A stretch of 64,000 nucleotides of DNA from an uncultured Candidatus Saccharibacteria bacterium (GTDB taxonomy: Bacteria > Patescibacteriota > Minisyncoccia > Phycocordibacterales > JACOZG01). Below are positions 5,678-64,000 of this stretch, in pieces (within the stretch, counting starts at the first letter, position 1; each line of letters opens with the position of its first letter). A program made the translations under genes and the position numbers. Where the stretch lies: the NCBI GenBank assembly GCA_964591715.1, contig CAZQDR010000003.1, positions 269-64,268 on the forward strand. The letters are read 5' to 3'. The notes under the pieces are model-generated. The model ran no database searches. It saw nothing but the letters and a program-made list of their open reading frames with translations, and was not told the origin of the DNA.

Positions 5678-6934
5678 TCAAAATATTTCATGCCACAATC
5701 TTTGCCACCACGACGGGTCAGTTGGGAGTTCGACCATGGTCGCAGTGGCCGCCGGCAGTGAGCTTACTGACGGCGGTAAGTCTATTGTAGCAGTTTCTAA
5801 AACGACTGGCACCACTGTCGCTTCATAATCAGGCGATACTGCTACGGGTAGCGCTGGTGGGGCCAGAGATTGGAGTTGCCGCGCGAGCAAGGCGAGCGCG
5901 GCTCCTTGGGTATTCGTTTCCGCATAGACTCGCCCGTTCGGGGCCGCCAGCGACAACTGGTTCGCTACAGTCAAAAAAGGAATTTTAACGGAGCTGGCAC
6001 TATTCAAAATCGTATCTTCCGGCAGGATGATTTTTTTCTTGCTGTCGCCCAACTGCCAATTCCCTACATTTACCTCATAGTTAGAATTATTTTTTAATTC
6101 GACATAGGCTTGATCACCATCATTACCCGCCCTAATAGCTAGGACTGGTTCAACCACCGTAATTACCGTCCGCGCCACCGCCTCGTCACTACCCTGCCGA
6201 ACCGTTGCCACCACGTTATAAGTGCCCGGGAAGGCGTACTGGTGATCAACCACCTCGCGATAGGCGGCGACACCATCACCAAAGCTCCAGTGATACTCAA
6301 TTGGCGCCGCGTCATCAGCACCACTAACCACTGCCCGGAAGGGCAGTCCCGCCCCCACCGCCACTTGCCGCTTGCGACCAATTGATAATCCCAGCCCTAA
6401 TTTCTCCTTCGGATTAGAGAGGGCGACCTGACTTTGATGACTGGAGCTAATACCACCCGAAGTGGCCGTGCTACCAACAACACTTACGGCGGGTTCCTCA
6501 TCTGGGTCCGAGTCGCCGCCCGCGGCCGCGGGCGGCGCGTCCGCGCTCACCGTAATTGGCTGCGAGGTTTGCCAGCTTTGACCACTCGTGCGCCCGGTTA
6601 CCACCACCTTAATGGTATACGAACCGGCCGTGGAATCGCGGTAGAGAAAATTGCGATTGGCCGAATTTTTGCTCATTGTTGTCGTTACCGGATTACCGCT
6701 AGTACTTAAAAATTCGCCCGTCGCTGACGTACTGGTAAAAGTCAGATCAGCCGTCTCGGTAATATTTTCTTTAACTCCCGCATTATTTTGGGTTTGCACG
6801 GTAATCGTCGCCGAACTCGCCCCTGGCGCAATCGTTTGCGGCTCGGTAGTAAAGACCACTCCCGCTACCTCTGCCCGCACCAAAACCGGCAGGAGGAGGA
6901 TGAGTCCCACTGCCATCACGTGTTTGTAGTTCAT
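5678..6934 (-). CDS. Secreted protein with Ig-like, PKD and lamin-tail (LTD) domains
   Basis: Signal peptide; PKD signature YHWSFGDG...HQYAFPGTYNVVATV; LTD signature AYVELKNNSNYEVNVGNWQLGD. Confidence 0.6.
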   Translation of the reverse strand: MNYKHVMAVGLILLLPVLVRAEVAGVVFTTEPQTIAPGASSATITVQTQNNAGVKENITETADLTFTSTSATGEFLSTSGNPVTTTMSKNSANRNFLYRDSTAGSYTIKVVVTGRTSGQSWQTSQPITVSADAPPAAAGGDSDPDEEPAVSVVGSTATSGGISSSHQSQVALSNPKEKLGLGLSIGRKRQVAVGAGLPFRAVVSGADDAAPIEYHWSFGDGVAAYREVVDHQYAFPGTYNVVATVRQGSDEAVARTVITVVEPVLAIRAGNDGDQAYVELKNNSNYEVNVGNWQLGDSKKKIILPEDTILNSASSVKIPFLTVANQLSLAAPNGRVYAETNTQGAALALLARQLQSLAPPALPVAVSPDYEATVVPVVLETATIDLPPSVSSLPAATATMVELPTDPSWWQRLWHEIF

Positions 6935-25791: not shown

Positions 25792-26376
25792 TTAGAGGTG
25801 ACTGTGGTGTAAGGCTTGATTAATAATTTCGAGCGCCAGCTGCTGGCGCTCGGCCGACAACTCGAGCGGCGCCATGTCCCAGTCGTTGAAAGCAAAAATG
25901 ACCTCGAGCTCCGGGCGCTCCTCTACATAACCCAAACGGCGCAAAAGCCGCGCCACCCAAATTAGCTCAAAATTGACTAGCTCCGCTTCGGTCAAAAAAG
26001 GTCGTTCCAAAAAATGGGCTCCGCTTTTAAACTCCTCAAAAAAATCGGGCTGGGCCACTTCACCGGTTACTAAGCGCAAAATCAGTTGGGCAACCCGGGC
26101 CAGGAGCTGCAGGCGCACCGCTTCGCGGTGCGCCGCCAATTCCCCCGCCTCAACATGCACCACGCGCCAGACCTCCCGGCCTCGCACCAACGAGACCTCC
26201 GGCCAACTAAATAATTGCAGATTATAACGGAGCTTAGACTTTAATTCCCGCAAACCTTGGGCGGTAGCGTTAACCAAACCGTGATCACGCGTATACAAAG
26301 TCAGCGTCCGGGTTGCTTCGCTCGCCTCTCGGACACCCAACACGACCGCTGGCGTGGTGTAAATTTGATGCGACAT
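25792..26376 (-). CDS. recO: DNA repair protein RecO (short form)
   Basis: N-terminal OB-like TPAVVLGVREASEATRTLTLYTRDHGLVNATAQGLRELKSKLR. The start overlaps the ileS stop (TAATG). Confidence 0.6.
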   Translation of the reverse strand: MSHQIYTTPAVVLGVREASEATRTLTLYTRDHGLVNATAQGLRELKSKLRYNLQLFSWPEVSLVRGREVWRVVHVEAGELAAHREAVRLQLLARVAQLILRLVTGEVAQPDFFEEFKSGAHFLERPFLTEAELVNFELIWVARLLRRLGYVEERPELEVIFAFNDWDMAPLELSAERQQLALEIINQALHHSHL

Positions 26377-29300
26377 TATTCGTAACGAAAAGCGCTCGCG
26401 CAGGTCGCGACTTTTATTTCGTGCTCATACTTCTCGGCCAAGCTCTGTTTGGCAATCGGTATAACCACTTCCGCTTGTTCTCCTGCCTTCAAGCCGCTTT
26501 CTTTACGCCAATCCTGAATTTCGCGAATCAAATCGCGCAGTTCCCCCTCCTCCTTAAGTTCAGGAGTGATAGTCAAATCAAGTTCTACCACTGCCGACAA
26601 GTTAGGATCAAAGATTACCGCTTTAACATTTACTTCGTCTTGGATAAGTTGAGCCAGTTCAGCGGAGAGCGGAGCACTTTTGGCTTTAAGTTCTTTTAGT
26701 GGTTGGCGAACTTTAATCGCGGCTTTGGCTCGCGCCTCTAAGCCACCCGAGACGAGCTGGCGCACGAGTTGCATCGCGGTAATAATTTCTTCGTCGCTCT
26801 TGTCGGCCTCGGGCCAATGCTCTAAGTGCACGCTCTCCGCGCCACCTTTCAATTTCAAATAAATTTCCTCAGCAACAAAGGGCGTAAATGGGGCCATCAA
26901 GCACGACAACACCAACAGCGTCCGGCGGAGCGTATCCATCACTGCCTGCGCCTCAGCGGGATCAGTGGGCTTAAAGCGATCGCGCGACCGGCGTAAATAC
27001 CAAGTTGATAAATCGTCCACAAATTCGTCGATGGGCCGCAAAGCCCGATCAAGCTCATAAGACTCCATCGCCGCTGTTACTAATCCAATCACTTCGTTAA
27101 GCCGGTCGTTAATCCAACGATCTAAAATATGAGTACTAGCGGCATCGCTCGGAACGTGGGCGCCGGCGTACAGTTCATAAAACGCCACCACGTTCCGCAG
27201 ACGGCCCAGCACCCGATTACTGGTCTCGCGCAAACCACGCTCCGAAAAATTAAATTCTTCAGCATGTACCGCTGGTGATGAGAGCAAGTAAAAACGCAAC
27301 GCGTCCGCGCCAAAAGTATCAATCGTGGGTTCCAGATCGGGATAATTTTTTAGACGCTTAGACATCTTTTGGCCATCCTCGGCTAAAATCAAACCATTCA
27401 CTACGACACGCTTAAAGGGGGGGCGATTAAAAAGTCCCAGCGAGAGCACCAGCAAAACATAAAACCAGCCGCGAGTTTGATCCAAACCTTCGGCAATAAA
27501 GTCCGCGGGAAAATGCTTTTCAAACTCTTCCTTGTTGGCAAACGGATAATGTAACTGGCCGTAAGGCATGGAACCGGACTCAAACCACACATCAAAAACA
27601 TCGGGTACGCGCGCCATCTCGGCACCACACTCGCAACGGAGTTTAACCTCATCAATATACGGCCGGTGAAAGTCGAGCTCGTAGGCTTGATTGTGCGGGA
27701 GAGCGACAAAGGGCAGTGGTCGCGATTCGGCGGTTTTTAAAAAGTAACGATCCTCACTCTGCGCGGCTTCGGCCTCGTGATCATTAAAGCCTTGGGCTCC
27801 CACCATCAATAACCAGCCCACCGCTTCGTGAGTGATCAGTAAAATATTTTTACCCGCATAACGAGCGTCAATCTCATACAGCGACTGGAGCGCCCGCGCC
27901 TTCACCTCATGAAAGTTTTCCCCCGCTGGTGGCGCCTTAGTAAAGCGCTCGGCTCGACCACTGAAAAAAGCGTGGAACTTAGCCACCGACCCCCCCTCCA
28001 ATTCGCCAAAGCCCACCTCGCGCAGGCGCTCATCCAAAACCACTTGATCGGCCGGTACTCCTAAAGCCTCCGCCATGAGCGCCGCCGTCTCTCGTGTTCG
28101 CAAAACTGGCGAAGTAATGATCAGATCAATTTTTTCCTTAGCCAAAGTTTTACCGGTGGCTTCTACTTGCTCACGGCCATTTTCCGTTAAATGATTGTCG
28201 CCATCGAGCGCCGAGGTAACAATGCTTTGTACGTTCGACTGGGCCTCGCCGTGACGCATGACCCAATAATTATTTTTTGGCTGCCGCTTAGCAGTGAGCT
28301 CCTCGAGTGAGCCAATCACTTCAATTTTTTTGCAGCTTTCGCAACGCCAGACCGGTAGCGGCGCCCCCCAGTAACGCGAACGCGATACTGCCCAATCGCG
28401 CGCCCCCTCCAGCCATTTACCAAAGCGACCGTCTTTAATATATTCCGGCACCCAAGTTACGCCCTCGTTTGCCTTCAAGAGTGCCTCCTTCATCGTACTT
28501 ACAGCAATAAACCAGGATGATGACGCGTAGTTTAAGAGAGGTGTATCGCAACGCCAACAATGAGGGTAGGGGTGAGTAATTTTTTCCTTCGCAAAAAAGG
28601 TGCCATGCTCCTGCAAATATTTTAAGACTGCAATGTCAGCCGAGAGACGCTCCTTCTCATCTTCACTCTTGGGTTTAACTGGCAGACCGGCAAAATCTTT
28701 GACCGCCGCTTTAAAGTGACCGCTAGTATCAACGTGCTGGATAAAAGGTAAATTTTTAGCCTGACCCAACTTTAAGTCGTCCTCGCCGAATGCCGGTGCA
28801 ATATGGACAATGCCGGTACCATCCTCGGTTGTCACAAAATCCGCGCCGTAAACCTGCCAACCGTTCTCCTTATTTTTCAGCGTCGTATCATTCTGATAAT
28901 AATCAAAAACTGGTTGATACTTTTTACCCACCAATTTTTGTCCGGTAAATGTTTCTTCAATGGTAAAATTATCGGTTAAAACTTTTGTGGCCAGCGCCTC
29001 CGCCACAATCAACTTAATTCCGCCCTTTTCGACTCGAACATAGTTCAGTTCGGGATTAACCGCCAGCGCCACATTACCTGGCAGCGTCCAAGGTGTCGTG
29101 GTCCAGGCCAACAAGTAAGTCCCCGGCTCATCAACCAGTTCAAATTTTACCGTCACCGACAAATCCGTGACATCTTTGTAACCCTGATTAACCTCAAAGT
29201 TAGCCAGCGTTGTCTCACAGCGCGGGCACAAATGCATAGACTTGTAACCTTCGTAGGCCAAGCCCTTGTCGTAGAGTTGTTTAAAAATCCACCACACCGT

Positions 29301-29771
29301 CTCGGTGTAACTGGAGTCCATCGTTTTATAATCGTTCTCCATGTCCACAAAACGGCCAATGCGGGGAATAATCCTTTTCCACTCGTCAGCATAACGGAGC
29401 ACGCTCTCTCGTGCCTTTTGGTTAAAGACGTCAATCCCCAACGCTTCAATATCCTTTTTGGTTTTTAGACCCAACTCTTTCTCGATCAGGTTCTCGATCG
29501 GCAAGCCGTGACAATCCCAACCCCAGCGACGCGCCACTCTAAAGCCGCGCATGGTTTGATAGCGTGGAATAGCGTCTTTAATCGAGGTCGGCAGCAAGTG
29601 ACCAAAGTGAGGCAAACCGGTCGCAAAGGGCGGCCCATCATAAAAAACGTACTCGCCTTTGGGCGCATCTTTAGCCAGGGACTTGGCGAAAATTTGGTGA
29701 TCTTGCCAGAACTTAAGGATCTCTTCCTCGCGTTTGGCAACATCGGATTTTTGGGGCAGAGCTTCGGCCAT
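26376..29771 (-). CDS. ileS: Isoleucyl-tRNA synthetase with an inserted histidine-phosphatase domain
   Basis: PPFATGLPHFGHLL (HIGH region), the editing-domain WTTTPWTLPGN, and KMSKRLKN. The ~195-aa insert carries RHGE...SPVLRTRETA...THE motifs; see findings. Confidence 0.9.
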   Translation of the reverse strand: MAEALPQKSDVAKREEEILKFWQDHQIFAKSLAKDAPKGEYVFYDGPPFATGLPHFGHLLPTSIKDAIPRYQTMRGFRVARRWGWDCHGLPIENLIEKELGLKTKKDIEALGIDVFNQKARESVLRYADEWKRIIPRIGRFVDMENDYKTMDSSYTETVWWIFKQLYDKGLAYEGYKSMHLCPRCETTLANFEVNQGYKDVTDLSVTVKFELVDEPGTYLLAWTTTPWTLPGNVALAVNPELNYVRVEKGGIKLIVAEALATKVLTDNFTIEETFTGQKLVGKKYQPVFDYYQNDTTLKNKENGWQVYGADFVTTEDGTGIVHIAPAFGEDDLKLGQAKNLPFIQHVDTSGHFKAAVKDFAGLPVKPKSEDEKERLSADIAVLKYLQEHGTFFAKEKITHPYPHCWRCDTPLLNYASSSWFIAVSTMKEALLKANEGVTWVPEYIKDGRFGKWLEGARDWAVSRSRYWGAPLPVWRCESCKKIEVIGSLEELTAKRQPKNNYWVMRHGEAQSNVQSIVTSALDGDNHLTENGREQVEATGKTLAKEKIDLIITSPVLRTRETAALMAEALGVPADQVVLDERLREVGFGELEGGSVAKFHAFFSGRAERFTKAPPAGENFHEVKARALQSLYEIDARYAGKNILLITHEAVGWLLMVGAQGFNDHEAEAAQSEDRYFLKTAESRPLPFVALPHNQAYELDFHRPYIDEVKLRCECGAEMARVPDVFDVWFESGSMPYGQLHYPFANKEEFEKHFPADFIAEGLDQTRGWFYVLLVLSLGLFNRPPFKRVVVNGLILAEDGQKMSKRLKNYPDLEPTIDTFGADALRFYLLSSPAVHAEEFNFSERGLRETSNRVLGRLRNVVAFYELYAGAHVPSDAASTHILDRWINDRLNEVIGLVTAAMESYELDRALRPIDEFVDDLSTWYLRRSRDRFKPTDPAEAQAVMDTLRRTLLVLSCLMAPFTPFVAEEIYLKLKGGAESVHLEHWPEADKSDEEIITAMQLVRQLVSGGLEARAKAAIKVRQPLKELKAKSAPLSAELAQLIQDEVNVKAVIFDPNLSAVVELDLTITPELKEEGELRDLIREIQDWRKESGLKAGEQAEVVIPIAKQSLAEKYEHEIKVATCASAFRYE

Positions 29772-57204: not shown

Positions 57205-57305
57205 TGATTAGTTGCATAGTCGCGAGGAAGAGGCTATTTCCCACACTGTACACCTTATTGATTAGTATTCAATGAAGCTAGCGAGTGACCTTGTGGTAAA
57301 CCCCC

Positions 57306-57692
57306 TTAATTAAACTTGATTTCAAACGGGTACATACCCATGCCACAGGAACCTTTAAGTGTGCCAAGCTGACCACTGCCAATATCAATATCCGTTGACC
57401 CCGTTTGAGGCAGTAGCTTTGAAATATTCATACTGGCGATCCTAACCGATGACGAACAATCAAACGTATTTTGAGTGTTAAATCGAAGAATGGTCGGGAT
57501 CCCGGCTTTAGCCACACTCTTGCGAGGCTGAAAACCGCCCCGAGCCGTAATCTCTATTATTTGTTTCCCATCAACAATGGTGACATTATTGCCGTTCTCG
57601 GTTAACTCCGCGCCGTCTTTATTACCGGCAAACAGGAAAGCTCCTCCAATGAGAGCCAGGGCGATAAATATGGCGATAACGGTTGCTTTCAT
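57306..57692 (-). CDS. Membrane-anchored cupredoxin-like protein
   Basis: Start re-picked at MKATVIAIF (ATG at 57692). The C-terminal ...GSCGMGMYPFEIKF resembles the Cupredoxin_1 family, and the gene sits in a copper operon. Confidence 0.5.
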   Translation of the reverse strand: MKATVIAIFIALALIGGAFLFAGNKDGAELTENGNNVTIVDGKQIIEITARGGFQPRKSVAKAGIPTILRFNTQNTFDCSSSVRIASMNISKLLPQTGSTDIDIGSGQLGTLKGSCGMGMYPFEIKFN

Positions 57693-57705
57693 AAATATTA
57701 TTATT

Positions 57706-58737
57706 TTAAAAATTAAACACTGGCGGAATAAGCCCAATGACCACCAAACTATTTATAAGGTTAAACAGCGCAAACATGATCACGATCAAGCCAGCCGTCT
57801 TAAAGAAAACTCCAGCCTTCGAACTTTTTTGGATGCTGAATGAACTAAAACTGATCAGGGCTAAAACGGGCAAAGTACCCAAAGCAAAAGCCAACATCGT
57901 TAACCCGCCAGCAATAAAGCTCCCCGTGGTCAGCGTGTAAAGCTGCATCGACTGAGTAAAACCGCAAGGCAAGAAGAAAGTGGCCACACCAACCGCGAGT
58001 GGGGTGAGAGTGTGATTAAGCTTTGAGACCCCATGAGCGTGTTTGGCAATAAACTTTGGCATCGAGGGCTGAAGCTTCTTAGCCCAATGAAAGGTGTCGA
58101 GAAGGTTAATCCCCAAAATAAGCATAACGGCAGCAATAACCAGACCCAAAATAAAAGTGGCGGTCGAACTTAGAGTAAAGGCTGACCCGATCGCCCCAAT
58201 AACTCCACCCAAAACAAAGAAAGAAACGATTCTTCCCCCATGGAACATCAGCTGGGGACGGACTTTGTCGCCCTCTTTAGCAAAGGTGGCGGACATCGAT
58301 AGAACCAGGCCACCCACTACCGCCATACAGGTCGAAAGCGAAGCGATTACTCCAACAATAAAAGTGGTGCCGTAGGAGACATTGCCGGCACTAACCAGGT
58401 TTACGATTCCCATTTTTTGAAGTCCGACAAATAAAACAGCAAAGGCAACCGCAATGGGAGCGGCAATCTTAAAGTCTCGCCACTTTGCTTGATGTTGCTG
58501 CTTAGATACCGAAACCGTATAGCCGTGGGATTTAAGAGGTACGGTGAGCTCCTCCGCGATCTGCTCTGGCGCCTGATTGCCAAAATTACCGACTACCTCT
58601 ACCGAATGATGTTTCAGACTGGATTTGACTTTAGTCAATTGAGGTAAATCACGCAACTCACTTTCGATCATGAGGACACAGGAATTACAGTGCATGCCGT
58701 GGACGTGAAAAATATAGGTTTGGTTTTGAGTGGCCAT
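57706..58737 (-). CDS. HMA-domain protein fused to a DsbD_2/TauE-like membrane domain
   Basis: GMHCNSCV metal-binding motif followed by 6-7 TM helices. Confidence 0.7.
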   Translation of the reverse strand: MATQNQTYIFHVHGMHCNSCVLMIESELRDLPQLTKVKSSLKHHSVEVVGNFGNQAPEQIAEELTVPLKSHGYTVSVSKQQHQAKWRDFKIAAPIAVAFAVLFVGLQKMGIVNLVSAGNVSYGTTFIVGVIASLSTCMAVVGGLVLSMSATFAKEGDKVRPQLMFHGGRIVSFFVLGGVIGAIGSAFTLSSTATFILGLVIAAVMLILGINLLDTFHWAKKLQPSMPKFIAKHAHGVSKLNHTLTPLAVGVATFFLPCGFTQSMQLYTLTTGSFIAGGLTMLAFALGTLPVLALISFSSFSIQKSSKAGVFFKTAGLIVIMFALFNLINSLVVIGLIPPVFNF

Positions 58738-58742
58738 AGTAA

Positions 58743-60986
58743 TTATAATTTTTTAGCTTTGATTCTAAGCGAGTTGGAGACGACCGACACACTGGAAAAG
58801 GCCATCGCCAAACCGGCAAACACCGGATTCAACAGCCAGCCAAAGACTGGATAAAACACGCCCGCCGCCAGCGGGATGCCGATGATGTTATAGATAAAGG
58901 CCCAGAAAAGATTTTGCTTAATCCCCCGCATTGTCATCCGGGACAACTTAATAGCTTTTACCAGCTTCGAAATGTCGCCGCCCAACAGAGTAATACCGGC
59001 TGACTCGATCGCGACGTCAGTGCCCGTCCCCATCGCAATTCCCACGTCAGCTTGAGCTAAGGCGGGAGCATCATTAACCCCATCACCAGCCATGGCCACC
59101 GTTTTACCTTGCGATTGTAATTCTTTTATTTTTGCTAGTTTATCTTGAGGTAAAACATGAGCGACCACATCATCAATGCCCACCAGCGAGGCGATATAGT
59201 TGGCCGCCTTTTCATCATCGCCCGTTAGCATCACCACCTTAATTCCCAGCCGATGAAGAGCGGTTACCATTGGTTTTGATTCTGGTTTAATTTCGTCAGC
59301 CACCATCACAAAACCAATAACGTTCTCGGTCGTCGCCAGAATAACCGGCGTTTTACCTTGTGCGGTGAAGAGGTCTAGGGCGCTGACATCAAAAGCCAAC
59401 CCCCGCTCATTAATCAGCTTGGCATTGCCCACAAAATATCCGACCCCTTTAACTGATCCTTTGAGTCCTCTCCCCTGTAACGCTTCGAAGTCTTCCACAT
59501 TTTCGATGATTATTTTTTTCTCTTGCGCGTAATTAACAATCGCCTGAGCAATCGGGTGCTCGGACTTCTTCTCCAATGAGGCTAGGATGGAAATCAGTTC
59601 TTCGTCTGAAAGGTTAGAGAAGTGTTTAATAACCGTGTCTACCTCGTGAAGTTTTTCTAGCGTGGCGGCATCTTTAATCAAAATTCCCTCCTTGGCTCCC
59701 TTACCAACCCCCACAATAATAGCGGTCGGCGTTGCCAGCCCCAAGGCACAAGGACAGGCAATGACCAGCACTCCCACAAAGGAAACCAGCCCAAACGATA
59801 AAGCTTGCGAGAAACCAAGAGCGGGAATGCCGAGCATTAACCAGATTCCCAGAGTCAGGAACGAGATCGCCAAAGTGATCGGCACAAAAACACTGGAAAT
59901 TTTATCGGCCAGCGCTTGAATCGGAGCTTTACTGCCCTGGGCCTCTTCGACCAGCTTGATGATCTGCGCCAGCAGAGTCTCCGCTCCCACTTTGGTAGCG
60001 CTAAAAATAAATGAACCGGTCGTATTTATTGTTCCCGCCACCACACTGTCGCCGATTTTCTTTTGGGCTGGCATCGGTTCGCCCGTCACCATCGACTCAT
60101 TAACGAAAGAGGCACCCTCGGTAATTACTCCATCGACAGGGATCTTAGCTCCCGGTTTTATCACAATCAGATCTCCATGCTTGACCTCATTCACCGAAAT
60201 CTCGACTTCTTCTCCCCCTCGAACCACCAGAGCCGTTTTAGCTTGAAGGTTGAGAAGTTTTTCAATCGCATCACCTGTCTTAATTTTTGATCGCGCTTCC
60301 AAATATTTACCGAGCGCAATAAAGGTAATAACCACGATTGTCACATCATAATAAGTCTGTTCAACATTAATGAAGGGCTGGAGTGATGACTCAAAAGCCG
60401 TAACAATAAAACTATAGAGAAACGCCGCGGAAGTACCAATACCAATCAGCGTATCCATGTTGGCTTTGCCGTAGCGGAGGAAACGATAAAAACCAAGGAG
60501 ATAGGGTTTGCCCACCACCAATAGGGCATAGGCGGCAAAGATCGGTAAAAGGTGATGGAAAAATTCTTTGCTAACGGGCCCCATTTCTGGCACCAGATTA
60601 TACTGAGCGAGAATATCCCAACCCATCACCAAGATGCTAAAAATCGCCAAAGGAATTGCGGATAAAACTTTTGATCGCATATCGGCCACCTCCGCCAACT
60701 TCTCCTTCTTTGATTGATTTAACCCTAAGTGAGCGGCGTGCTCGTCCTCTGACATCCCCATCTCACTCGCGGTAGGCAGCTCCAAGGAATACCCCAACTT
60801 TTCTATTTTTTGAGAAAGGTGGTGGGCGTTAGTCTGAGATTCATCAAAGCTTACTTTGGCCGTTTCCGTCCCATAGTTCACTTCAACCGAATCAACACCA
60901 GCTGTTTTTTTAAAAGTTTTCTCGATGATGCCCGCGCAAGAGGCGCAATGCATTCCCTTTACCCGATAAATTTTAGTGTGACTCAT
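58743..60986 (-). CDS. copA: P1B-type (copper) ATPase homolog lacking the DKTGT phosphorylation motif
   Basis: GMHCASCA HMA, TGEP, CPCALGLATP, SEHP, MLTGD and GDGVNDAP are all present. DKTGT is absent at the HEVDTV|IKHF junction (59630/59631). Confidence 0.85.
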   Translation of the reverse strand: MSHTKIYRVKGMHCASCAGIIEKTFKKTAGVDSVEVNYGTETAKVSFDESQTNAHHLSQKIEKLGYSLELPTASEMGMSEDEHAAHLGLNQSKKEKLAEVADMRSKVLSAIPLAIFSILVMGWDILAQYNLVPEMGPVSKEFFHHLLPIFAAYALLVVGKPYLLGFYRFLRYGKANMDTLIGIGTSAAFLYSFIVTAFESSLQPFINVEQTYYDVTIVVITFIALGKYLEARSKIKTGDAIEKLLNLQAKTALVVRGGEEVEISVNEVKHGDLIVIKPGAKIPVDGVITEGASFVNESMVTGEPMPAQKKIGDSVVAGTINTTGSFIFSATKVGAETLLAQIIKLVEEAQGSKAPIQALADKISSVFVPITLAISFLTLGIWLMLGIPALGFSQALSFGLVSFVGVLVIACPCALGLATPTAIIVGVGKGAKEGILIKDAATLEKLHEVDTVIKHFSNLSDEELISILASLEKKSEHPIAQAIVNYAQEKKIIIENVEDFEALQGRGLKGSVKGVGYFVGNAKLINERGLAFDVSALDLFTAQGKTPVILATTENVIGFVMVADEIKPESKPMVTALHRLGIKVVMLTGDDEKAANYIASLVGIDDVVAHVLPQDKLAKIKELQSQGKTVAMAGDGVNDAPALAQADVGIAMGTGTDVAIESAGITLLGGDISKLVKAIKLSRMTMRGIKQNLFWAFIYNIIGIPLAAGVFYPVFGWLLNPVFAGLAMAFSSVSVVSNSLRIKAKKL

Positions 60987-60991
60987 AAAAT

Positions 60992-61255
60992 CTATTTACG
61001 CTTAAGCTTATAGACCTTGAGCACTTCCCCGACAGCCTTATCGGGCTTGCCTTCTTTTATTTGTTTAACCACACAATGTGAGAGATGGTGCTCCATAAGC
61101 AGATCCTCCACATTCGACAAACCCTGCTTGGCGGCCGAGCTTTGGGTAATGACGTCAATGCAATAGGTCCCCTTCTCCACCATTTCCCGCAAGCCCCGGA
61201 CCTGACCTTCAATAATCTTTAGGCGACGAGCCAGCTTCTCCTTGTTTGTATTCAT
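60992..61255 (-). CDS. csoR: CsoR-family metal-sensing repressor
   Basis: LARRLKIIEGQVRGLREMVE...YCIDVITQ...HLSHCV (the C-H-C ligand pattern). Confidence 0.85.
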   Translation of the reverse strand: MNTNKEKLARRLKIIEGQVRGLREMVEKGTYCIDVITQSSAAKQGLSNVEDLLMEHHLSHCVVKQIKEGKPDKAVGEVLKVYKLKRK

Positions 61256-61266
61256 AGTTCTATCCT

Positions 61267-61284
61267 ATACCCCCCAGGGGGTAT
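61267..61284. promoter_or_regulatory. CsoR-type operator ATACCCCC-CA-GGGGGTAT overlapping the csoR-copA promoter
   Basis: Perfect 8-bp arms lie between TTGACG (61286-61291) and TAGGAT (61262-67). Confidence 0.7.
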
Positions 61285-61312
61285 CCGTCAAGTATAGATA
61301 TCCCCCTTACCG

Positions 61313-61354
61313 TCAAAACAAAAATGACCCCGCGAATAGTGTTCGCGGGGTCAT
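61313..61354 (-). terminator. Intrinsic terminator after the HIT gene
   Basis: ATGACCCCGCGAA-TAGTG-TTCGCGGGGTCAT hairpin followed by TTTTTGTTTTG on the minus strand. Confidence 0.75.
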
Positions 61355-61380
61355 GAAAACTGGCGCCTAGTGACAACGGG

Positions 61381-61836
61381 TCAGGCAATGGTTTTATCTA
61401 AAGTCAATTTAAGCTGTTTCGCCACCTCTTTAAGTTCCGCCTCTGGACTCGCCTCTCGGCTACCAGGACGATATAAAAATTGACGAGGTTCATATTCAAT
61501 AATTCCTGCGTCACCTTCCTTTCGTGGCAACAAGTGCAAATGAAAGTGCGGCACTGATTGTCCCGCCAATTTACCCTCATTCCAGGCAAAGTTGAAACCT
61601 TCAGCGCCAAACACTTTAGTCAGTGCCCCTTTAAGTGTCCCCATTAAATTAAAAATGGCTTGTCGTTCCGCTTCGGTCAACTCCGCAAAAGTAGCGACAC
61701 AGCGAGTCGGCACAATTAAAACGTGGCCAGGCACAATCGGGATATTGGTTGGGAAAGCGAAAGCTAATTCATTAGAAATAATCACCCGCTCTTTAATAGC
61801 TGGGATTTCACAAAACGCGCAGTAAATATCAGTCAT
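61381..61836 (-). CDS. HIT-family nucleotide hydrolase/transferase
   Basis: Histidine triad HFHLHLLPR and GHVLIVP. Confidence 0.85.
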   Translation of the reverse strand: MTDIYCAFCEIPAIKERVIISNELAFAFPTNIPIVPGHVLIVPTRCVATFAELTEAERQAIFNLMGTLKGALTKVFGAEGFNFAWNEGKLAGQSVPHFHLHLLPRKEGDAGIIEYEPRQFLYRPGSREASPEAELKEVAKQLKLTLDKTIA

Positions 61837-61890
61837 AAATTTGAAAGCCAGTATATCAACTAATCTCTTGGTTAGAAAGTTAATTGAGTT

Positions 61891-61932
61891 ATTTAAATAA
61901 AAGAAGCCCCGTCAGCATCACGCTGCGGGGCT
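61891..61932 (-). terminator. Intrinsic terminator after the 61963-62343 gene
   Basis: AGCCCCGTCAGC...GCTGCGGGGCT hairpin followed by TTCTTTTATTT on the minus strand. Confidence 0.7.
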
Positions 61933-61962
61933 ATTAAGGTTGTGACTGGGGCACTTCTGACT

Positions 61963-62343
61963 TCAGTCCGGCAGAGCTTCGTTATCAAGCTTGATCGCCA
62001 GAGCTAGAAGAACTAACGCATTTCTGACTCTCAAACTACGACCGCCACCGATCATCGTTCGAAAGCGCAAAACCGGTCCGCGGTGCTGGTCGGTGCTTAA
62101 CCAAGCATCACCATCCCGAGTAAACCCGACAATCATCCGTCCTTCCCGCGTGCCATCATGATCATCGTGCAATCTCAAGTATTGCTCATCCACCGATAAT
62201 CCGGTTGGCCAAAAAGGATTGTTCAGCACCCGCAACGCATCTTTGTTCAGTCTTTCGCTGGAGGGTTCCACATTGATCTCCTTATATTTAACCAAGCTCC
62301 CCTCTTCCTCTTTAAAACTACTGCGTTTAGAAGATAGGGTCAA
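61963..62343 (-). CDS. Hypothetical protein
   Basis: An ORF with a TTG start at 62343. An alternative GTG at 62271 lies 6 nt after GGAG. I recognise no motif. Confidence 0.45.
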   Translation of the reverse strand: MTLSSKRSSFKEEEGSLVKYKEINVEPSSERLNKDALRVLNNPFWPTGLSVDEQYLRLHDDHDGTREGRMIVGFTRDGDAWLSTDQHRGPVLRFRTMIGGGRSLRVRNALVLLALAIKLDNEALPD

Positions 62344-62344
62344 A

Positions 62345-62839
62345 TCATTTCCTTGCTCGATATATTTTTAACTTACTGTACTCTTTATCCTCTTCTGACT
62401 CTAACACTAACTCTGGCTCTAGATTAAACACTGGAACACCTTCTACCACTTCAACTGGCACGACATTAAAAATAACCTTGTCGATCAAACCAAGCTTATA
62501 AAAATCAGTATTTAAAGTCGGGCCACTTGATAATAAAATCTTTTTCCCTTGCTCTACCGCCTCTTCTGGCGACCCCACTTTTACATAGCCAAGCTTAGGA
62601 ACGAATTCCTCATTCTTGCTTACGACGACTTTTTTAATTTTAAGCTCTCCAAAACTTCTAACTAAACCTGGTTCATATGATTGAATCACTTCATACGTCC
62701 TTCGGCCCATTACCACGACATCGCACTGACGGCACAAGTTTAAAAAATCACTCCATAGCTCGTCGGGTATAAAATCCTCCGAGTCATCTAATCGAGAAAT
62801 AAACCCATCGGCCGAAATGGCGTTATATAGAGTTACCAT
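62345..62839 (-). CDS. RibD C-terminal / DHFR-fold reductase (second copy in the window)
   Basis: YNAISADGFISR...VVMGRRTYE...LLSSGPTL pattern. The ATG lies 6 nt after TGcTATACT. Confidence 0.6.
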   Translation of the reverse strand: MVTLYNAISADGFISRLDDSEDFIPDELWSDFLNLCRQCDVVVMGRRTYEVIQSYEPGLVRSFGELKIKKVVVSKNEEFVPKLGYVKVGSPEEAVEQGKKILLSSGPTLNTDFYKLGLIDKVIFNVVPVEVVEGVPVFNLEPELVLESEEDKEYSKLKIYRARK

Positions 62840-62892
62840 CCCTAAAGTATAGCAGACCAGCTTTCTCCATACCCACCTGGAAAAAAGTGTAC

Positions 62893-62917
62893 TGAGAAGT
62901 CGTTTTGGTTTTAGGTG
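62893..62917. repeat. 25-bp direct repeat, copy 1 (TGAGAAGTCGTTTTGGTTTTAGGTG)
   Basis: Matches 63943-63967 at 24 of 25 positions. Confidence 0.8.
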
Positions 62918-63074
62918 AGGTCGTAGAGGATGTTAGAACTATATTTGAGAAAAGGAATGATGCGACGATCTACATTCCTGATTTATACCCTACCCCAGCA
63001 CGTCAAAACTAGAACCGATTTTACAGCTCAAAGAAAACCGCCCTCTAACGGTTTTCGTTAGTGGGCGGTGGTGG

Positions 63075-63605
63075 TTAAACAAAAGAACAAATACAACTTT
63101 CTTTCCGCCGGCCGCAACCGAGACAGTCGCGGTTTACAGGTTCGCTCTCGGTGAGAAAGTCCTCTTCGTCATACTGCTCGCACCGTGCTTCGTCGGCATC
63201 GCGTTGAGAATTGTCCGTCGAGAACAGATTGATACGCCCCGGACGGTGAACCGACATCGAGACTTCGTGTTCAAGCTCGCAGCAGGCAAGCGTCGTCCTT
63301 GTGTCAGCGTCGCGAATCACTCTCATGAGCTTGTTGCGCACAGACTTCAGAAGTTTCTGGGGGTTGCGCAGTTCCCCTCGGAGGCTGTACTCAAAAAGAA
63401 TAATTTCACCCATACCCCCGAGCCGATGCTGAACAATCACGCAGTTGCTGGCGAAGCATTCCAAATCTTCTACTGTCAGTCCAATGGTCGTGATTCCATA
63501 AACCATGAACACGACTCGTGAGCATGACTGGCCGATGATGGCGAGCGTACCCTCACTCTGGATTTGAACTTGCCGAGACGCCGAAACGATGACGTTGCTT
63601 TTCAT
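63075..63605 (-). CDS. Hypothetical protein with a C-terminal Cys cluster
   Basis: Start re-picked at MKSNVIV (ATG at 63605, AGGAG 7 nt upstream). The C-terminus reads CLGCGRRKESCIC. Confidence 0.5.
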   Translation of the reverse strand: MKSNVIVSASRQVQIQSEGTLAIIGQSCSRVVFMVYGITTIGLTVEDLECFASNCVIVQHRLGGMGEIILFEYSLRGELRNPQKLLKSVRNKLMRVIRDADTRTTLACCELEHEVSMSVHRPGRINLFSTDNSQRDADEARCEQYDEEDFLTESEPVNRDCLGCGRRKESCICSFV

Positions 63606-63696
63606 CTCTAGACTCCTAATTTGAAGGAACAATGTGTCGAATGTTTATTGAGCCCAACACGTTGGCTCACAGGATCGAATGATTCTTGCTTTTACT

Positions 63697-63725
63697 ATTA
63701 TATCTTTATTCCAGTTTTTTGTCAA
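63697..63725 (-). promoter_or_regulatory. Perfect consensus sigma70 promoter TTGACA-17-TATAAT
   Basis: -35 at 63720-63725 and -10 at 63697-63702. It drives the 63075-63605 gene. Confidence 0.65.
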
Positions 63726-63784
63726 TAGCTCGGGTAGAACTAAAACATGCCTTAAAATAAGGCTAGATTGGAGAAAATTATCGC

Positions 63785-63800
63785 TGGGTGCCCACTAGGA
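63785..63800 (-). other. Orphan copy of the tRNA 3' end (att-like fragment)
   Basis: TGGGTGCCCACTAGGA matches TGGGTGCCCACTGGGA at 63962-63977 at 15 of 16 positions. Confidence 0.6.
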
Positions 63801-63942
63801 CGCTTCGCTATCTCACATCGCTTCGCTCCTACAAACCCCTCGGTTTGTATTGTTCCGCCACGGGGAACTAATGTTCCCCGACCCCCTCCTTGTTCTATTC
63901 CCACTGGGGCCCAACAGCGAAACACAAAACGACCCCTCGTAA

Positions 63943-63967
63943 TGAGAAGTCGTTTTGGTTTTGGGTG
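63943..63967. repeat. 25-bp direct repeat, copy 2, overlapping the last 4 nt of the tRNA
   Basis: TGAGAAGTCGTTTTGGTTTTGGGTG. Confidence 0.8.
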
Positions 63968-64000
63968 CCCACTGGGAATCGAACCCAGATTGAGAGATCC
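63964..64000 (-). tRNA. tRNA gene, 3' portion only (truncated by the window edge); identity undetermined
   Basis: The minus strand reads ...CTGGG-TTCGATT-CCCAG-TGGGCAC-C, giving a T arm, a 7-nt acceptor strand and discriminator C. CCA is not encoded. Confidence 0.65.

Follow-up and report, generated by a model that had tools for sequence, protein, structure and literature searches.

A single-gene segment without an integrase in a duplicated attachment-site-like sequence 3′ of a tRNA gene in an uncultivated Patescibacteria lineage

Occupied and empty alleles behind the tRNA gene

The 64,000-nt stretch of contig CAZQDR010000003.1 (assembly GCA_964591715.1) analysed here, which we call the window, ends inside a tRNA gene, and a short distance 3′ of that tRNA lies an 867-bp segment that carries one gene and is absent from related contigs. 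Judging from the comparison with these contigs, the insertion is the interval 62918-63784 (minus strand), and it splits a duplicated attB-like copy of the tRNA end and the sequence behind it at the hexamers CACCCA and CACCTA. We interpret the locus, with moderate confidence, as a hotspot of site-specific recombination 3′ of the tRNA gene that retains at least two nested scars.

The related contigs were found through exact look-up of neighbouring proteins. L001 is an independent NCBI contig, while L004-L009 come from JGI and Logan assemblies and have about 80-96% nucleotide identity to parts of the window. L001 is 99.9% identical to 60707-63487, with 1 single-nucleotide polymorphism and one 3-bp indel. 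It starts inside the open reading frame (ORF) of the inserted gene and reproduces two thirds of that gene, the non-coding DNA 3′ of it, the right junction of the segment and the short repeat, T2′, that follows the junction.

Read away from the tRNA, the window contains the tRNA, its trailer T1 (63963-63912), a 111-nt spacer X (63911-63801), a 16-nt copy of the tRNA 3′ end (63800-63785), the 867-bp segment (63784-62918), the trailer fragment T2′ (62917-62889), a RibD_C-like gene and a gene for a 126-aa protein. In the same orientation, L004 begins with unrelated DNA, which is followed by ACC plus T1 (6518-6575), X, the 16-mer (6685-6700), a second trailer T2 (6701-6750) and a homologue of the 126-aa gene, an arrangement with which L005 and L006 agree. 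The L004 spacer that aligns to X spans 6576-6684 and is 96% identical to it, as is that of L005. The 16-mer and the 29-nt T2′, which stand apart in the window, are the two halves of a continuous 66-nt sequence, R2, in these relatives.

BLAST of the window against the related loci, together with the junction sequences, delimits the 867-bp segment and shows that it is lacking in L004, L005 and L006. The empty allele is seamless and without the cargo gene at L004 6685-6750, at L005 1320-1385 and at the start of L006, reading ...GCGTCCCAGTGGGCACCCAAAACCAAAACGACTTCTCATTAC..., and the occupied allele of the window reads ...GCGTCCTAGTGGGCACCCA/GCGATAA...(867 bp)...CGACCT/CACCTAAAACCAAAACGACTTCTCAGTAC, with slashes at the junctions. 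Sequences diagnostic of the two alleles are GTGGGCACCCAGCGATAATTTTC for the occupied left junction, CTACGACCTCACCTAAAACCAAAAC for the occupied right junction and GTGGGCACCCAAAACCAAAAC for the empty site, and an excised circle is predicted to carry the junction CTCTACGACCTCACC[C/T]AGCGATAATTTTC. There is therefore a presence/absence polymorphism with a precise empty site, and CACCCA and CACCTA stand at the two junctions of the occupied allele.

A second junction between foreign and native DNA is found at nearly the same point. L004 and L005 read ...CATACTG/ACCCAAAACC, within 1 nt of the right junction in the window (...CGACCT/CACCTAAAACC), and in both contigs what stands before the first trailer copy is unrelated DNA, with no tRNA upstream. 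That two independent junctions fall where the tRNA end meets the trailer speaks for repeated crossover at one site and against random breakage. The island-side arms of the right junctions in the window and L004 were also compared for a common origin, which was rejected, as a generic terminator is their sole similarity. The upstream DNA (L004 36-6520, L005 1-1154) probably represents a larger island that occupies this hotspot. It carries small ORFs, to which L004 adds an FGE-sulfatase gene and an RHS toxin gene, which encodes a 1,391-aa RHS-repeat protein and has a small ORF downstream.

The tRNA end, its terminator and their displaced copies

The window holds the 3′ 37 nt of the tRNA gene (63964-64000, minus strand). 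The Rfam tRNA model matches this stretch over positions 35-71 of 71, truncated at the 5′ side and with 15.5 bits, and places the tRNA end at 63964. ARAGORN calls no tRNA at the window end because the gene is cut there, and the T arm (CTGGG-TTCGATT-CCCAG), the 3′ acceptor strand TGGGCAC and the discriminator C are recognisable by eye. The gene is probably a tRNA-His, to judge from C73 and its expected pairing partner G.

Directly 3′ of the tRNA gene, on the tRNA strand, is the sequence CAAAACCAAAACGACTTCTCATTACGAGGGGTCGTTTTGTGTTT, a hairpin followed by a T-run. This trailer, T1 (63912-63963, minus strand), is the intrinsic terminator of the tRNA, an inverted repeat AAAACGACTTCTC...GAGGGGTCGTTTT with a T-rich run behind it, and its hairpin folds at -26.3 kcal/mol (z score -4.0). 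The 3′ arm of the hairpin is 63944-63967 and the partner arm is 63915-63938. T1 and the last 16 nt of the tRNA make up a 68-nt attB-like unit, R1, and T1 is 96-97% identical to L004 6521-6575 and 6701-6750.

Parts of this unit recur in direct orientation. A 25-nt repeat (62893-62917 and 63943-63967, 24/25 matching) extends to 29 nt (62889-62917 and 63939-63967, 27/29), the longest repeat at the locus, and consists of the last 4 nt of the tRNA (CACC) and the first 25 nt of the trailer, that is, the first terminator arm. It has just 2 copies in 64 kb at up to 3 mismatches and none in 100 shuffles. A 16-nt repeat of the tRNA end (63785-63800 and 63962-63977, 15/16 matching) likewise has just 2 copies in 64 kb at up to 2 mismatches, where 0.04 are expected. 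Both exceed chance and are displaced copies of a tRNA 3′ end of the kind by which Islander-type islands are recognised.

The displaced 16-mer, TCCTAGTGGGCACCCA (63785-63800, minus strand), is a pseudo-tRNA 3′ end and makes up the left half of R2, the attB-like copy that is split, and its last 6 nt are the junction hexamer CACCCA (63790-63785). T2′ (62889-62917, minus strand), present in L001 as well, is the right half: it begins with the hexamer CACCTA (62917-62912) and lacks the second terminator arm. The repeat is no generic terminator, since this distal copy is half a hairpin and no third copy occurs in 64 kb. T2′ differs from all other copies by 2 private substitutions, as would be expected of a fragment deprived of its hairpin partner.

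Most of what the original prediction had read from the letters of the window holds up: the tRNA end at about 63964, both repeats and their resemblance to the tRNA-end scars of site-specific integration (here a tRNA end with an arm of its own terminator), a single credible gene between them at 63075-63605, its perfect TTGACA-17-TATAAT promoter and the lack of an integrase in the island. It had proposed that relatives would differ in the presence of the insertion, as L004, L005 and L006 do with their uninterrupted site, and that a repeat found as a generic terminator would speak against the idea. Its insertion of about 1 kb between the 25-nt copies has to be replaced by the 867-bp unit described above.

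Spacer X (63801-63911, minus strand) is an older scar that the window has in common with L004 and L005. It begins with an inverted fragment resembling the tRNA 3′ end (63892-63911, plus strand GTTCTATTCCCACTGGGGCC), whose L004 counterpart matches the real T loop and acceptor end at 17/20 positions. It further holds two strong hairpins (63861-63880 and 63831-63848) and two copies of the 9-nt direct repeat AGCGAAGCG (63801-63809 and 63819-63827). With the inverted tRNA-end fragment at its start and the direct 16-mer at its finish, the ends of X can pair, and the 133 nt from 63783 to 63915 (L004 6573-6702) form a closed multibranch fold with paired ends (-51 kcal/mol, z score -3.8). X matches no Rfam family. 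It may be debris of the attachment region of an earlier element, or a small structured element.

Origin of the insertion

The two alleles suggest an order of events. In an older step, common to the relatives, the last 16 nt of the tRNA and the 52-nt trailer would have been duplicated around the 111-nt remnant X. The product would be tRNA[16]-T1-X-[16]-T2, with a second attachment-site copy that has no tRNA of its own. The tRNA-proximal 180 nt of T1, X and the 16-mer (63785-63963) are 96% identical in genomes without the cargo gene, and this part is therefore an older scar, separate from the 867-bp insertion. In a second step, the segment would have come to occupy the second copy at the boundary between tRNA end and trailer, either by entry in the lineage of the window or with precise excision from the relatives. 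A crossover within the CACCCA hexamer would leave CACCCA and CACCTA on the two sides in the manner of a tyrosine recombinase with a 6-8-bp overlap region. Since the segment encodes no recombinase, an integrase from another locus would have moved it in trans, or internal deletion would have reduced a larger island to this remnant. Through a separate indel, the RibD_C-like gene would have been acquired or kept and the distal half of T2 lost, which left the 29-nt fragment.

Several points weigh against this reading. The origin of the 68-nt attachment-site duplication is unaccounted for by it, the event may be a gain or a precise loss, and the left junction, between the 16-mer and the cassette, is seen in one assembly only. 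With a GC content of 0.475, against a window mean of 0.489 (standard deviation 0.033), the insert does not look foreign. One other locus of the cargo family (L013) lies next to a recombinase, which is XerC/D-like and may be a housekeeping enzyme.

Further points of this kind lend themselves to an alternative in which illegitimate recombination, or recombination at microhomologies, added or removed the 867-bp segment in an intergenic region that changes fast, with the tRNA-end copies as older, unrelated scars and the CACCCA/CACCTA pair as a coincidence. The flanking hexamer is just 6 nt long and imperfect (5/6), so that microhomology is possible. Nearby indels, namely the RibD_C-like gene and a 4.6-kb block with HIT, CsoR, CopA and DsbD-HMA genes, both absent from L004, have no att-like ends. 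At the other family loci neither flanking direct repeats nor a nearby tRNA are present, and the cassette hence shows no site-specific behaviour of its own elsewhere. An integrase was found neither in the insert nor among the ORFs of the window that were scanned, which are not all of its ORFs. What such an origin leaves to chance is that the tRNA end and the trailer of an attB-like copy are parted exactly at their boundary, that the independent L004 junction lies within 1 nt of this point and that the empty allele is seamless. We regard this alternative as unlikely on balance, though a serious competitor.

The original prediction had taken the 25/29-nt copies as attL and attR of one element of about 1,050 bp (63938-62918) that brought in X, the 16-mer and the gene together. 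The 29-nt repeat is indeed the longest at the locus and begins with the last 4 nt of the tRNA, and the foreign junction in L004 likewise keeps just ACC and the trailer, which is compatible with a crossover in the segment made of CACC and trailer. L004 and L005, however, have T1, X and the 16-mer at 96% identity without the gene and then a complete second trailer, so X and the 16-mer can occur apart from the gene segment; moreover, one continuous sequence in the relatives has the 16-mer and the 29-mer as its two halves. A single element of this size is accordingly quite improbable.

A chimera made by metagenome assembly at the repeated trailer or tRNA-end sequences is hardly credible: L006-L009 break inside the repeated trailer, a hard spot for assemblers, and a single assembly holds the left junction, but the independent contig L001 reproduces 60707-63487 with T2′ and two thirds of the gene, and the 16-nt repeat at the left junction is shorter than the k-mers that assemblers usually employ.

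Neither the JGI metagenome contigs nor IMG/VR yielded a match to the trailer pattern, and a scan of IMG/VR with the 3′ half of the tRNA was equally negative.

The inserted segment and its protein

From the tRNA side, the insert comprises a hairpin with a T-run, a promoter, a leader of about 85 nt, a ribosome-binding site, the gene for a 176-aa protein, its terminator, a second hairpin with a T-run, and about 30 nt up to the junction. All of these features are on the minus strand. The hairpin at the upstream edge of the cassette (GCCTTATTTTAAGGC followed by ATGTTTT; 63742-63763) came from a terminator scan, and a sequence resembling it occurs upstream of the promoter at two other loci of the family (L010 and L018). 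The sigma-70-type promoter TTGACA-17-TATAAT (63697-63725) matches the consensus at 12/12 positions. It is followed by the 5′ leader (63606-63690), within which 63619-63676 is a conserved block, and AGGAG stands 7 nt before the ATG of the gene (63075-63605). The intrinsic terminator of the gene is the inverted repeat CCGCCCACTAACG-AAAA-CCGTTAGAGGGCGG followed by TTTTCTTT (63030-63068), and the second hairpin and T-run lie at 62947-62978.

The insert contains no recombinase, and its single gene has no match in Pfam, NCBIfam, PHROG or PADLOC. The coding sequence has a GC content of 0.522, a value reached or exceeded by 20% of windows of the same size. The segment does not qualify as an insertion sequence (IS) or a miniature inverted-repeat transposable element, with no inverted repeat joining the ends of 62918-63784, no transposase and just an imperfect 6-nt direct repeat.

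The original prediction had called this gene an orphan. A word-indexed search (phmmer) found ten relatives of the protein with 33-55% identity (E values 1e-28 to 6e-6), and 1.84 billion cluster representatives searched with a profile yielded 50 hits at E values of at most 1e-3. By these searches, the cargo is a rare accessory gene of an unnamed family of about 50 protein clusters, all of them unannotated. The members have 96-182 aa and no informative names; the sole source label, "molybdopterin biosynthesis enzyme" on P0011, is unsupported. A search for homologues in phages or plasmids had been proposed, and there are none in the PLSDB plasmids, the INPHARED phages or IMG/VR.

Conserved features of the family are an N-terminal MKxNVI and the block FEYxLRGELRNPQKLLKSVRNKLMRAI on a long helix, or, as a looser motif from the alignments, FEYxLxxELRNPxKLLKSVRNKL. 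AlphaFold (AF2) predicts a core of residues 1-123 with five strands and a long helix at 82-119, with a predicted local distance difference test score of about 90 for residues 10-120. Acidic at first and then Cys-rich, the tail (124-176) is predicted to be disordered. It ends in ...DCLGCGRRKESCICSFV, also given as CLGCGRRKESCICSFV, and is common only to the two closest relatives, in a reduced form (...LGPLPKVCFGF).

A promoter and leader shared across the family

We compared the leader of the window with those of seven other loci of the family (L013, L010, L011, L015, L012, L002 and L018); L010 and L011 are identical here, which leaves six distinct sequences. A TTGACA/TATAAT-type promoter and a conserved leader precede the family gene at all seven. 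The leader consensus is GATTCTG(W)GAGCCAA..TGTYGGGCTC..AAAACAT(Y)(Y)GACA, also written GATTCTGWGAGCCAA..TGTYGGGCTC..AAAACAT, and blastn-short matches to it were found in L013, L010, L011 and L012. Over 34-54 aligned nt, the leaders are 85-95% identical to that of the window at the nucleotide level, and the proteins are 33-50% identical. A leader better conserved than the protein behind it is the signature of a cis-acting regulatory element, and this is directly testable. The leaders lie at 1083-1168 in L013, 2866-2953 in L010, 202-288 in L015, 1590-1676 in L012, 5912-6000 in L002 and about 255-337 in L018. A pattern scan for the leader returned just two metagenome contigs, both already known, and 0 viral contigs.

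The leader block holds two inverted repeats, one like AGAAT..ATTCT and the other GAGCC..GGCTC. The possibility that it is a structured RNA was examined and rejected, since it is about as stable as its shuffles (z score +0.5) and matches no Rfam family, and the single apparent compensatory pair is contradicted by L018. Because there is no excess RNA stability and the compensatory change is not upheld, a binding site for a protein, in DNA or RNA, seems a better description of the leader than a folded RNA. The most invariant segment of the protein and the most invariant non-coding segment travel together, from which we infer that the protein, or a partner of it, may act on its own leader in autoregulation.

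The family genes occur in varied contexts, some of them mobile. L013 has its copy between a XerC/D-type tyrosine recombinase and a Fic protein, L010 and L011 near GmrSD/HNH, an AAA ATPase and a methylase, and L012 near pilins of a type IV secretion system (T4SS). The L002 copy adjoins a DEAD/SNF2 helicase and an AcrVA2-like protein, that of L018 lies between a glycosyltransferase and RodA/FtsW, and that of L015 follows the end of an IS30-like transposase. In the last case, an ORF end at 3-152, closing with IRDYFPKKTNFSMITDDEIQFVENELNSRPRKRLGWKTLLEVWGVALQS before its stop, stands directly upstream of the family promoter and by eye resembles the C terminus of an IS30-family transposase; Pfam gives no hit on this 49-aa fragment. 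No conserved partner gene was found beside the family members in the loci that were read. The module thus appears to stand alone and to have been scattered horizontally among Patescibacteria.

A more far-reaching proposal, which we consider speculative and rather doubtful, is that the unit of promoter, leader, gene and terminator is an undescribed, self-contained mobile accessory module of Patescibacteria. Its invariant helix (LRNPQKLLKSVRNKL) would recognise the leader, as a DNA operator or in the mRNA, so that the unit would regulate itself wherever it landed, and the copy at the tRNA end in the window would be a caught example of capture by resident integrases. The neighbourhoods with defence islands, T4SS genes and IS elements are the reason for proposing that its product would be active in conflicts between mobile elements and their hosts.

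Host and neighbouring genes

The window is chromosomal and carries IleRS, ArgRS, MetRS, GlyRS and FtsK. The best named relatives of its GlyRS are from Yonath-, Pace- and Adlerbacteria (70-75% identity), and JGI and Logan contigs have a 94% identical copy. The host is a member of the Patescibacteria, of Parcubacteria type. The IleRS (1,131 aa; 26376-29771, minus strand) matches the IleRS model in two stretches, and its residues from about 493 to 663 match models of the histidine-phosphatase/phosphoglycerate-mutase type (1e-12 to 3e-25), which suggests an inserted domain.

The neighbour on the far side of the insertion is the gene for a RibD_C-like reductase (62345-62839, minus strand; Pfam RibD_C, 6e-10). 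It has the lowest GC content of the region (0.396) and is absent from L004-L009, and by this distribution it marks a separate indel. The original prediction had looked to relatives for an uninterrupted tRNA next to this gene. Such an arrangement was seen only in L003 (864-1416), a metagenome-assembled genome of a distant member of the Saccharibacteria, where a homologue with 53% protein identity starts about 20 nt after a tRNA-Gln(CTG); the close relatives lack the RibD_C-like gene, and two other loci with homologues have no tRNA nearby. The tRNA of the window is not a tRNA-Gln because its discriminator is C, and an ancestral order with the tRNA next to RibD_C was rejected.

Two further differences from the relatives were observed in the adjoining DNA. 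The 4.6-kb block at 57278-61891 contains a HIT-family gene and genes for a CsoR-type repressor, a CopA P-type ATPase and a DsbD_2/HMA membrane protein (copper handling). In L004-L008 it is replaced by about 480 bp with an 83-aa ORF, and no att-like ends were noticed. The gene for the 126-aa hypothetical protein (61963-62343) differs by a 3-bp indel from L001, where the product has 127 aa. In relatives that are about 90% identical it is called as just 102 aa, and the true start is uncertain.

Comparison with known integrating elements

As an integration scar the locus is ordinary, a tRNA-linked integration hotspot with a minimal islet that lacks an integrase. Its value is that of a clean example from an uncultivated Patescibacteria lineage in which a duplicated attachment site 3′ of a tRNA was reused as a landing pad, with both alleles in hand, and searches for working integrases in these organisms can start from its 66-nt attB candidate and the crossover hexamer predicted here. 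What is unusual, as far as the loci that were read can tell, is a rare, uncharacterised gene that always comes with the same promoter and leader, and this module is the part most worth further study.

Islands at tRNA genes are bounded by a regenerated tRNA and a displaced 3′ fragment of it (the Islander definition, PMC4383910). The locus resembles such islands in its direct repeats of the tRNA 3′ end downstream of the tRNA, its occupied and empty alleles and its accessory cargo. It differs from them in that there is no integrase, that the insert amounts to just 867 bp and one gene and that its composition is not foreign. The insertion also lies in a duplicated site copy without a tRNA and not in the tRNA itself, and the repeat reaches 25-52 nt past the tRNA into the terminator.

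Secondary att sites and tandem integration have been described, for example for SGI1 (PMC2297512). Several att copies in series are found here too. Segments without an integrase that are flanked by att sites are known as cis-mobilizable elements (CIMEs) from Streptococcus thermophilus, in connection with integrative and conjugative elements (ICEs) of the ICESt1 type. The 867-bp segment is like a CIME in being a recombinase-less stretch between att halves, which could move only by an integrase acting in trans or by accretion with a complete element. In contrast to both tandem arrays and CIMEs, no cognate ICE or integrase has been identified for it, its att halves are very unequal (16 nt and 29 nt) and its mobility is putative.

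Integron gene cassettes are likewise single-gene units at a recombination site without a recombinase of their own. The segment in the window differs from these in having its own 12/12 promoter and an intrinsic terminator and in lacking both an attC-like element at the 3′ end and a neighbouring IntI or attI. The part that is conserved is the 5′ leader, whereas in integron cassettes it is the 3′ recombination site.

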